From the NCBI RefSeq assembly GCF_003704095.1, contig NW_020845515.1, positions 62,001 to 126,000 on the forward strand: 64,000 bases of DNA, given 5' to 3'. Under the pieces are notes generated by a model. It saw nothing but the letters and a program-made list of their open reading frames with translations. It was not told the DNA's origin and made no database searches. A program made the position numbers and the translations under genes. This document shows positions 17,001 through 28,801 of this stretch, piece by piece. The DNA comes from Pocillopora damicornis. Taxonomy: Eukaryota. Each line of letters opens with the position of its first letter. The stretch's first letter is position 1.

Positions 17001-19257
17001 AGTCAGTCTTTCAGTAAGTCCATTAGGCAAGCAAGCAGGTATTAAGTCTATAATGTTGCCACTTAATTAATTCCTCCGTCGTTAAGTTAGTCTTTGACGA
17101 TATAAGCATCTGCTCCTCACCCTCCACCGGAGAAGAAACTAAGGTAACGACTCTCCCTGCTCCTCTGTACGAATTTTAGGCAAGGCACTCTTTCCTCCCA
17201 GTGCTTCATAGCACGCAGGATAACTCCACGCACATTATCTGAAGGAGTAAAAATAGAATTATTCTTTTAAAATCTACGATGAAGCCTAACACTGAAACGA
17301 TAGAAACAATTTCATGATATTCAAAAGCAAAATATTAAGAGAGATACTCAAAGACCTATTATAAAATTAGTTAGACGTATACTCACGGTTCGAGCTTGTA
17401 ATGTAATAGGGGACTTCTCGCTTTCCACTACTACCAACAAGCCATCGAAGGTCGCTGCCTCCAGACACCCTCATGATCGCCCTCTTTCGTCTGCTCTGAG
17501 GTTTTGCCATCCTCTTAGGAGGCACCAGGATCCCGCGGCTGTTGAGGCTGTCACGTATTTCTCGGGTCATGATTATGTCACCTTGAAACAAAGCTTCTTT
17601 ACCATCTAAACAGGAAAAAAGATCAGAGTAAGGGCAGGAATATAAACCATAAAAGGCGTTTAAAATTCTATATATTGCGATATTGTGCACGGTTGTGGAG
17701 TTTTTCGCGAGAGTACCTGAACTTAACAGTCTGTAGCATGAACCCAGTTTTTCTCGACTTATCTGGTAACTGTATAGCTAAAAACGTGAAATAATTTACC
17801 TCTGGACCTGCCATTTTCTCCTGTTGCTTCAAGAATGGTGTCAAAGACAGGCTTCATTGTCTCGTTTGCTAGGATAAACATAAATTAGCTTGGTTAATAT
17901 AAACAAATCTTTGAAGGGATAAGTGCTAAATGTGAGAGACAACGAGGGGTTTACCAATTATAGCGCAGTTAAAGGTTGGGATTATAAAGAAAAATGAAGA
18001 ACAAACACCACGGATCTACCACGTAAATTTGCAAGTTCGTGTGCCAATTTTTTTTCGGTCTGTAAGAGGGCTAAGTAGAGAAAAAATTGGAATCTATGAA
18101 TATTCCGAACGAGTATTTTGCTGCAATTTTTTTTTTCATGATGTTATTGTAAATTTCGAACCAACTCGTCAAGCACTCTACCCAACCTTACACCTGAAGC
18201 GTGACAAACCGTGGGCTTTTATTGCGGTTATTCAAGGTCATCACAGTATACCCTATGCGGAGAGCCGGCACAAACCATGATCTACGCAGACAGTGTAACG
18301 CCAATGACGGAAATTGTCAATATGTGACACTTTGAACTGTATCTGTCATCAAAAGGGAAATTTCTTTCGTGACCGTGGAAGTGATTGATTGTTCCACTGA
18401 TAAGTGATCCTTGGGATTATTTTAATGGTATATCGAGCTGTAGTAGTTTCGCAACTCAGCAGTCGATAATTGACAAAAAAAAAACAAGAGGAGTATTTCA
18501 CGGAGATGTTAAATCTAATCAATAAGTGCGCATAACTTCTGATTTAATATGCCGCCTGATCCAAAATTGTTGCCTCATATCTCTTGGTGATTCCCAGATA
18601 GTTGTTGTTACTTTCCAGTTACAAACATTTCCTGACCGATTGAAACATCCATGGCCTGTGACGTCTGTAAACGTTTAGAAATTGGATATCGTAGTAGCTC
18701 ACAATAGACATACACGCGCTAATGTTCGCTCATTTTTAAGCATTTATCGAAACTTACCACAAAATCCCCATTGCCTGTCAGTTTCATAGACATCATTTAA
18801 AGAACACCATTCTCTCCCAAAATCTTTCGTTGTGCACTCATAGTAATCCACGCCTCTGTAAGTGAATGGAAACACACAGCACTTTCCGTTCGTTGTGTTG
18901 CGAGTGTAACAGATGTCATCTGTAGAATCTCAACAAAAGCACAAAGTCACAACAAAGCCTTCTGCTCCTGCATCGTTTGCACGTGGAACATGTCTCCACA
19001 TTACTGAGAACATCAGCCAAACGGAGCGAGGAAGTTGGAAAATGACAAGAAGGCGGATAAATGGAAGAGCATAAATGGCTGTGGTTTAATCTTTTTGAAC
19101 GGAAAACGACCGAAGTGCTAAACGTAAACCGTGGCTAAAGTTTGAGGTGCGCAGTGTAGAGGAGAAATTTTACACGCACTTTACCTGTGGGAGCTGCAGA
19201 TGATTCCTCAACTTGTGCTACCACAAGCACAGCTGCCCAAATCCACAACAATTTCAT
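14100..19257 (-). CDS. Astacin (M12A) metalloprotease A1: signal peptide, FN2, propeptide, astacin, 2x ShKT
   Basis: Ten exons: 19185-19257, 18758-18919, 17800-17868, 17387-17605, 17121-17238, 16305-16402, 16060-16143, 15688-15936, 14725-14853, 14100-14218. Motifs: LFQGDI propeptide, RRKR furin site, [19 protein letters not shown] zinc motif, SVMHY Met-turn, two 6-Cys ShKT domains. TATATAA at ~19326-19332. Confidence 0.93.
16525..17020. repeat. Degenerate (AGTC/AGTG)n simple repeat with a higher-order unit, in an A1 intron
   Basis: Runs of agtc. The unit gtgagccagtgag..tcactcattgagttagtcagtcag recurs at ~16578, 16678 and 16798. A related (GACA)n tract lies at ~15415-15600. Confidence 0.85.
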
Positions 19258-20036
19258 GTTGAACTTATCTCCAGGGATCAGCTTCAGTCTACAACAAGCG
19301 TAATAGAAAAGCTTTCTTGTTCTGCTTATATAATCAAAGTTGTGGCAGACGTGACTAACGCGTTCTCATCAATTCCTATTACGTAGACACTTTTATTGCT
19401 CAATGATTTGGATGTCGTAGGGTAAAACACAGCTGGATATTTTTCTGCCCTCTCATATCTCACTTTGCCTTACCTTTTGACCTGATCAAATCCGTCGTGG
19501 TCATAATTATCCGGTTGCACGTAACGTATATTGGAAAACTCCTGCAAGACAGCGTCTGCTGAAACGCACTTTTTCACCGACTTCGGTTTATATTAAAATT
19601 AACTTCCAGATTCAACAGCTTTCGTCATGATAACCATCTAAAACTAACGTTTTATTTTTCTAGGAACCCCGAGAAAATGAATGAAGAATTCTCCCTGATT
19701 GAACCTTCCATGTTTCCCAGCTTGTTACTTTGCCAGATCCAGACAAATCACGGTAACGTTTAGCGTGGGTGACCTGTCACCATACGTGCGTCAGACACGC
19801 ACACGTCTCAAGGAGTTTACTTGAAGCAGACAGTTTCTGCTCGGTAAACTAATGCGTATGTAGTAATAACTTGAAAGCTTTTGAAATAGCTTCCCGGCTT
19901 TAATACCCTGGTATTATTTATTGAAAAAATCAGATAGAGAATAAACAATTTATTAACGCATTGAAAAACGTGTAGCTACAACAAACTTTGCCTCAGAGTG
20001 ATTTCACATTTTTCCAGCTTCGCAGACTAAGCTGGT

Positions 20037-28100: not shown

Positions 28101-28801
28101 AGTTCTGCTTCTTGAGAATTTTCCGTTGCCAGCCTGTTAGTTCGATATCTCCCTCGTGCAAGAAAAGCCCGCTCCTGTCCGTCACTCAAAAAGTATAAAA
28201 AAATTAAATCAATTAATAAATGAAAACCGTATTTATAATCGCAGAACACGCTCACATAAACGGTAAACCTGCAAATTACGAACTCAGTCACAGAGCGTAT
28301 ATATATATATTTTTTTTTTTCAATTGCTTTTGTGCTCAAAGTATATTTTTTGAAGAAACAACAAGAATGTCGTCATTCATAAGACTGGATTACGGTAAGA
28401 GTAAAGAAGGTAAGTAACTAGCTAAAAAAATCAGTGCTTACTTCGTAAGTTTCCAACAGCATTGTTGGCCTGTTCGATAGCTTGAAAGGCCGAAATTTCC
28501 TCTTTTGATGTCGAGGTATTTCCCTGCAGTTGACCTGGGGCTAAAAAATTGAGATGCCGTTTAGTTTTGACTTCTTTGAAGTCCTTACATAGAAATAATC
28601 GACTGTGCTGACCTTACAAAAACTCTCAAAATGCTCCAATATAGGATATACGACTTTGATCTAGGAGTACTCAAAAATCCATCTATTAAAATTTGCAGTT
28701 GACTCAAAAATTTTCATACCTGGAGGTTGCATTAGTCCATCTGGTGTTAAAATGCATTCACTCATTTGCAGAAAAACTGCCAGTAGAATCATACGAAACA
28801 T
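25136..28801 (-). CDS. Astacin metalloprotease A3: signal peptide, propeptide, astacin, 2x ShKT
   Basis: Nine exons. First exon 28720-28801 encodes [27 protein letters not shown] with a phase-1 GT donor. Remaining exons are close paralogs of A2 ([35 protein letters not shown]). Last exon ends [16 protein letters not shown] at ~28897-28904. Confidence 0.9.
25820..26023. mobile_element. TTAA-flanked MITE in A3 intron 7
   Basis: TTAA|CTTTTTAATTCTCAAGATCTG...GGGGTTAAAGGA|TTAA. Same subfamily as 20999-21202. A fragment also lies at ~34751-34857. Confidence 0.7.

Follow-up and report, generated by a model that had tools for sequence, protein, structure and literature searches.

Introduction

Among described systems, the closest to the locus reported here are the duplication chimeras of Drosophila yakuba, of which 24 of 76 were upregulated, compared to 5 of 66 whole-gene duplicates (PMC5460883; this paper and most of those compared below are cited from excerpts). 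Tandem arrays occur throughout coral genomes (Noel et al. 2023, PMC10236652); in the excerpted main text of that study the word "astacin" is absent, and "chimeric" occurs twice, one use being about assembly contigs. The Nematostella astacin NEP-6 is found, according to the excerpted report, in nematocytes and pharyngeal gland cells (Moran et al. 2013, PMC3627010), and the main text of the Stylophora cell atlas leaves astacins unmentioned (PMC8162421). We analyzed a stretch of 64,000 nucleotides (nt) of Pocillopora damicornis, hereafter the window (assembly GCF_003704095.1, contig NW_020845515.1, positions 62,001 to 126,000; coordinates below count from its first letter). Four astacin genes lie in it: a minus-strand tandem of A1, A2 and A3, and A4, which is head to head with A3. 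The middle gene of the tandem, A2, is almost certainly a chimera, in which the upstream region and signal exon of A1 have been set onto the body of A3. We found no publication on this locus by title or abstract, and a search by accession returned 0 papers.

Results

A2 resembles A1 at its 5′ end and A3 throughout its body

A2 (23980-20037, minus strand) has nine exons and encodes 391 amino acids (aa). Its exon 1 (23908..23980), a signal exon that ends in phase 1, matches the signal exon of A1 (19185..19257) at 66 of 73 nt (90%). The likeness continues into the DNA ahead of the gene, where the region upstream of A2 (23981..24436, delimited by alignment) copies that of A1 (19258..19805): positions 24436-23985 align to 19805-19262 with 76.8% identity over 436 columns, a score reached by none of 1000 shuffles. 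The same part of A2, exon 1 plus upstream DNA, resembles A3 at chance level only (score reached by 74 of 1000 shuffles). A genome search returned the block of exon 1 and promoter in only two copies.

The affinity is reversed in the remainder of the gene. Exons 2-9 of A2 (23776-23657, 23411-23226, 22806-22689, 22571-22480, 21890-21807, 21616-21359, 20596-20477 and 20161-20037) encode a putative prodomain, the astacin domain and two ShK domains, and are 80.8-97.6% identical to those of A3, compared to 57.9-76.2% for A1. All eight A2 introns align to A3 introns with 71-74% local identity (0 of 300 shuffles each), whereas six of seven A2/A1 intron comparisons stayed at chance and the other was borderline (1 of 100 shuffles), with a dispersed repeat in both introns. 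A tree of the catalytic region of 33 proteins placed A2 within the A3 clade (98/98) and A1 in a separate clade of FN2-bearing proteins. Comparison of the window with itself gave a single collinear run of matches at an offset of 4.7-5.2 kilobases (kb), from 19180/23903 to 23844/28606. The initial annotation, made by a model from the letters alone, had described an A1-type 5′ end, an A3-like body that, with parts of its introns, is far from A1, and an unrelated signal exon in A3; each of these descriptions was borne out. Exon 1 of A3 (28801-28720) lies just beyond the interval that it gave, 19140..28640.

Both parents are intact and flank A2 in the order A3-A2-A1 on the minus strand, so that the donor of the 3′ part is upstream and that of the 5′ part downstream. 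A3 (28801-25136), an astacin gene with two ShK domains, comprises nine exons (28801-28720, 28540-28442, 28184-27999, 27541-27424, 27315-27224, 27084-27001, 26655-26416, 25644-25525 and 25260-25136) and encodes 381 aa. A1 (19257-14100) comprises ten exons, encodes 439 aa and adds an FN2 domain ahead of the astacin and two ShK domains. Pfam reports Astacin and two ShK domains in A1-A4, and FN2 in A1 only. All three tandem genes have open frames and GT-AG introns, with splicing taken from coordinates, and splice joints in RNA contigs support at least seven of the eight A3 introns. The translations are identical to the NCBI models of the species: P0076 for A3, P0026 from residue 53 for A2, and P0073 minus 3 aa for A1. 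The first 52 aa of P0026 are an N-terminal extension from an in-frame upstream ATG at 24136 (24136-23981), which is absent in the P. verrucosa models and which we take to be a matter of annotation. The acceptors of exon 3 are uncommon, GAG in A3 (28184) and AAG in A2 (23411), and both are used in RNA contigs. Exon 2 of A2 has an insertion of 15 nt relative to A3 (within 23757-23728), resembling a decayed tandem duplicate of the 15 nt that follow.

The motifs of A2 mark it as a putative M12A astacin metallopeptidase. At residue 194 it has HEXXHXXGXXH followed by EXXRXDRD, as do A1 and A3; its Met-turn, SVMHY at residue 249, is intact in all three, and it scores 204 bits with the Pfam Astacin model (cut-off 22.5). 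The N-terminus is hydrophobic, and EGDI at 75 and RQKR at 96 are what we take to be the zymogen motif and a furin site. The best matches in the PDB are Tolloid-like and BMP1 domains, a likeness that does not amount to an orthology test.

The switch of parent lies within 11 nucleotides of intron 1

The intron that is spliced from RNA between exons 1 and 2 of A2 measures 131 nt (23777..23907) and is itself a hybrid. Its first 33 nt (23907-23875) are A1-like; an unanchored alignment of so short a segment was equalled by 22 of 1000 shuffles, but the segment directly continues the exon-1 match. Positions 23863-23777 are A3-like (0 of 1000 shuffles), and the switch is thereby confined to the 11 nt at 23874-23864. 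The corresponding ends in the parents are the 3′ part of A3 intron 1 (28541..28631, from alignment), where the first copy of the duplicated unit starts, and the 5′ part of A1 intron 1 (19141..19184), where the second copy ends. The FN2 exon of A1 (18919-18758) falls beyond that end, outside the unit. The initial annotation had already proposed that the FN2 exon was left out and that the intron changes from A1-like to A3-like sequence, and shuffle-tested alignment recovered both segments. It gave the intron 137 nt, a length that belongs to an alternative acceptor 6 nt further on, rather than to the 131-nt form spliced in RNA; this longer intron fits the 389-aa isoform P0027.

Introns 1 of A1 and A3 have no detectable homology to each other (score 16, null mean 21), and we rejected such homology as a substrate for unequal crossover, the score being below the null mean. 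A1 intron 1 also gave a match in the 3′ half of A2 intron 1, which we set aside as chance (533 of 1000 shuffles). Two in-frame acceptors follow the shared exon 1 in both genes, at 23776/23770 in A2 (6 nt apart) and at 18928/18919 in A1 (9 nt apart), and these pairs fit isoforms of 391/389 aa and 442/439 aa, respectively.

The RNA evidence consists of assembled contigs, not raw or long reads. The joint 23776/23908 (131 nt, GT-AG) is spliced in three of three RNA runs from three studies, and an unspliced 2537-nt contig of a fourth run (X4), covering 23322-25120, spans the junction. A2 appears in three Pocillopora annotations. The P. verrucosa models P0011 and P0027 have 391 and 389 aa, as the two acceptors predict, and the P. 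meandrina model P0075 fuses A3, A2 and A1. A2 is thus an intact, spliced gene, and the fusion is present in the DNA.

Outgroup proteins assign each first exon to its parent

The direction of the exchange was read from outgroups at the protein level, among the matches listed, which included 125 zinc-motif proteins of at least 300 aa (of 178, many of them redundant). Each of ten A3-type proteins tested, including those of Stylophora, Desmophyllum, Oculina, Orbicella and Porites, matches exon 1 of A3 (p=0.001 each), and none of the ten matches that of A2 or A1 (lowest p 0.10). The signal exon of A3 also stands directly before exon 2 in two genomic loci from other corals (L013 and L014), and appears ancestral for the A3 clade. 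Conversely, six of ten FN2-bearing A1-type proteins match exon 1 of A2 (p<=0.004). The 28 A3-clade cores comprise 22 with an A3-type start, four with an A1/A2-type start and two with neither; for the 58 A1-clade cores the numbers are 30 with an A1/A2-type start, 28 with neither and none with an A3-type start. Two fused Pocillopora models that hold A2 internally were scored by their A3 start. The mixed form, an A3-clade core behind an A1/A2-type start, consists of four redundant rows, all from Pocillopora. That A2 is chimeric, with the 5′ end of A1 placed on an A3 body as the initial annotation had proposed, is therefore close to certain.

A single tandem duplication is the probable origin

We consider that A2 was probably made by one tandem duplication of about 4.7 kb in the common ancestor of Pocillopora and Stylophora. 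In that ancestor A3 would have stood directly upstream of A1 on the same strand. A break-and-rejoin between intron 1 of A1 and intron 1 of A3 would have duplicated everything between them, and since the two introns share no homology, the join was likely non-homologous or based on microhomology. Both introns are in phase 1, so the frame would have been kept without further change, the FN2 exon remaining outside the unit. The two copies of the unit would now be 28631-23864 (4768 nt) and 23863-19141 (4723 nt). The gene order, the collinear offset and the similar non-coding divergence on the two sides of the junction (77% in the promoter, 71-74% in the introns) fit a single duplication. The A3 3′ untranslated region (UTR; 24958..25135, with AATAAA at 25021, 25002 and 24958) is homologous around the first AATAAA to that of A2 (77 columns, 76.6%, 0 of 300 shuffles), and the A2-A1 and A3-A2 spacers still align there and in the promoter. 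The Porites models P0034 and P0094, in which an A3-type body runs straight into an A1-type body, suggest that the parents were neighbors before the event; in Desmophyllum, Oculina, Orbicella and Porites lutea, A3-type and A1-type genes are on equally long contigs.

Several observations weigh against this account or complicate it. The adjacency of the parents rests on gene models and equal contig sizes, with no outgroup DNA running from A3 to A1; a metagenome scan gave, among the loci listed, 13 (7 transcript-like, 6 genomic), none of them reaching from A3 to A1 and none evidently from Stylophora. Four of the ten A1-type proteins (from P. lutea, Acropora, Montipora and one more) match neither exon 1, which means that the A1-type signal exon can be followed through some of the corals only. 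Within the A3-A2 spacer, a central stretch of about 550 nt has lost its alignment to the A2-A1 spacer (score reached in 21 of 300 shuffles). An 85-nt dispersed repeat inside this stretch (24522..24606), which recurs at 39 further sites among the 40 scored out of 392 candidates, accounts for only part of the gap, and homology along the unit is thus interrupted. Synonymous A2/A3 differences are absent from exon 6 (0 in 17 sites; p about 0.05, allowing for 8 exons), and A3 of Stylophora has seven derived A2 residues, of which three fall at positions 127-133, and joins A2 in the tree of the body (94/96). The exon without synonymous change and the A2 residues in Stylophora A3 make later exchange within the cluster likely and hint at gene conversion. 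Exon 1 also shows less synonymous divergence (1.5/18) than the body (0.26), a difference short of significance (p=0.12). Lastly, RNA contigs join exon 9 of A3 to exon 1 of A2 through the spacer, so that firing of A2's own promoter stays putative.

Other routes to the same structure were weighed. An A3-A1 pair may have been duplicated first, and a deletion from intron 1 of the first A1 to intron 1 of the second A3 may have followed. This sequence of steps predicts every feature seen, and copy number does vary in the cluster, P. evermanni having two A1-type models (P0034, P0095) on one 136-kb contig; it requires two events, however, with no intermediate among the matches listed, and the genome search found only four close copies of the astacin exon 7, all within the window. 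We regard it as unlikely. A more remote route begins with duplication of the whole of A3, the promoter and exon 1 of the copy being overwritten later by those of A1 through gene conversion or a template switch from the shared 3′ UTR. The hints of conversion at other points of the cluster (exon 6; exon 4 of Stylophora A3) and the slightly lower divergence of exon 1 and promoter than of body and introns would agree with overwriting. Yet that difference is the non-significant one given above, alignment upstream of A2 reveals no remnant of an A3-type promoter or exon 1, and introns 1 of A1 and A3 lack the homology to end a conversion tract. The probability left to overwriting is accordingly small.

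Two further readings retain hardly any probability. The assembly is fragmented and has N gaps, from which a spurious A2 or a merge of haplotypes could be suspected; this was refuted by the synonymous divergence of A2 from A3 (dS 0.32), by the RNA contigs that carry the junction spliced and unspliced, and by A2 in the annotations of other species. The initial annotation had itself raised the converse history, in which A3 also started out with the A1/A2-type first exon and later exchanged it for another. We found nothing in favor of this history, and the ten A3-type proteins, those of Desmophyllum, Oculina, Orbicella and Porites among them, refute it, as all carry the A3 exon and none the other. 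The single duplication thus remains the account that we prefer.

A2 is probably old and has changed more than A3

A piece of the Stylophora model P0004 corresponds to exon 3 of A2 and groups with Pocillopora A2 (100/100), which probably places the event before the two genera diverged, a split with a median date of about 56 million years (Myr) ago in the excerpted source (PMC5519588). Judged from this piece, the duplication is likely old, not recent. No full-length Stylophora A2 protein is present among the 60 matches, and the fused model P0004 skips exon 4 of A2 and has later exons out of frame, which, in a gene model only, is no proof of a pseudogene. Between A2 and A3, the ratio of nonsynonymous to synonymous divergence (dN/dS) is 0.30 (bootstrap 0.20-0.43) over 353 codons, a value by which the A2 body, as read from its codons, is under purifying selection. 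Of the 53 fixed differences between A2 and A3, P0006, an outgroup, agrees with A3 at 31, with A2 at seven and with neither at 15 (p=1e-4); as it sides mostly with A3, most of the change fell on A2. Within Stylophora (P0077, P0004, P0065), whose A3 and A1 are XP_022795374 and XP_022795391, A3 is A2-like in exons 3-8, and A2 is seen only as pieces in the fused model. The Stylophora A1 signal peptide scores 107 against that of A2 and 81 against that of the A1 in this window.

Regulation of A2 and possible read-through from A3

The swapped exon encodes a predicted, cleaved signal peptide; the mature A2 enzyme would therefore be of A3 type, and the event would at first have altered the sites and timing at which an A3-type protease is produced. 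The TATATAA of A1 (19332-19326) reads GATACAG in A2 (24046-24040), an alteration that the initial annotation had noticed and that we confirm as a sequence change only. One RNA sample carries a change in A1's own TATA (position 19326). The promoter copies share an identical run of 23 nt and a block of 42/45, compared to 17 and 39 for the best of seven introns, a weak margin. RNA contig depth was not used as a measure of expression, as it cannot rank the genes (in X20 the A2 bins are covered, those of A1 and A3 thin).

The contigs that cross the spacers raise an alternative compatible with either origin, namely that A2 is transcribed mostly by read-through from A3, the borrowed promoter being weak or idle and no regulatory swap existing today. 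An X15 contig covers 25260-23908 and is spliced on to exons 2-3 of A2, an X17 contig covers 25260-23930, and a further X17 contig, 20161-19207, extends the last exon of A2 into exon 1 of A1. The contigs from A3 into A2 and from A2 into A1 may represent read-through of one terminator in each of its two copies. The altered TATA-like site would suit an idle promoter. A contig over two genes does not show one transcript, however, and a read-through RNA would present the A3 stop first, a poor fit with the dN/dS of A2; the promoter blocks are also somewhat better conserved than introns, by the weak margin above. Dominant read-through appears to us a minority possibility. We also entertain, as less likely than not, that A2 is a long-lived regulatory-swap gene, which a single rearrangement would have brought to make an A3-type protease in the cell type of A1. 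It would then have evolved at about four times the rate of A3, with a new role gained in Pocillopora and decay in Stylophora. If this were true, swaps of phase-1 signal exons would be a general route to new expression domains in the tandem arrays of coral secreted proteins.

Other features of the window

A4 (30526..34143, plus strand), an older paralogue with an astacin and two ShK domains, lies head to head with A3; it is context only and took no part in the event. The same head-to-head pair occurs in locus L012 of another coral (270-1747 and 4850-8434), from which we conclude that the layout of the cluster is old. Intron 5 of A1 contains about 500 nt of degenerate short tandem repeat (16525-17025). 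At 3976-5942, beside a gap of 10 N, lies a tandem block with units of several hundred nt and 80-97% identity, which may be an assembly overlap.

Discussion

A2 belongs to a known type of event, that of the Drosophila chimeras, and its mechanism is a textbook one. In the excerpts of PMC5460883, the D. yakuba chimeras likewise join the 5′ end of one neighbor to the 3′ end of another and leave both parents intact. They are young and segregating, and their expression was measured, whereas A2 is shared across Pocillopora and is likely tens of Myr old. A2 further differs in that two members of one family were joined, that only the signal exon of the protein was swapped, and that it is known from sequence and contigs. 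The duplication chimeras on record are mostly young, and rare in their populations; A2 has apparently been kept for tens of Myr, with both parents adjoining and the junction readable to 11 nt.

The architecture of the proteins is no different from that of the cnidarian ShKT-astacins of family M12A, which, in the excerpted account (PMC9848320), share with A1-A3 the zinc motif followed by EXXRXDRD, the Met-turn and the C-terminal ShK domains, and whose prodomain has a putative counterpart here. NEP-6 of Nematostella is, in the excerpts of its description (PMC3627010), a secreted cnidarian astacin without CUB domains, as are the coral genes. The NEP-6 name on P0011 and P0072 is an NCBI source label only, not an orthology assignment, and the sole Nematostella match among the 60 listed bears another name (47% identity). 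Since the exchange was confined to the upstream region and the signal exon, A1-A3 form a natural experiment on whether a gene that borrows 5′ sequence gains a new expression domain, and also on subsequent protein divergence.

Compared to the coral tandem arrays described in the excerpts of PMC10236652, A2 shows the same birth by tandem duplication, the same retention in the array, and the same conservation of exon lengths with diverged introns. The copies treated there are of whole genes, and gene conversion is reported to be very rare, whereas A2 is a hybrid in a cluster with hints of conversion. Thus, coral tandem arrays, which are usually counted as whole-gene copies, can contain hybrids.

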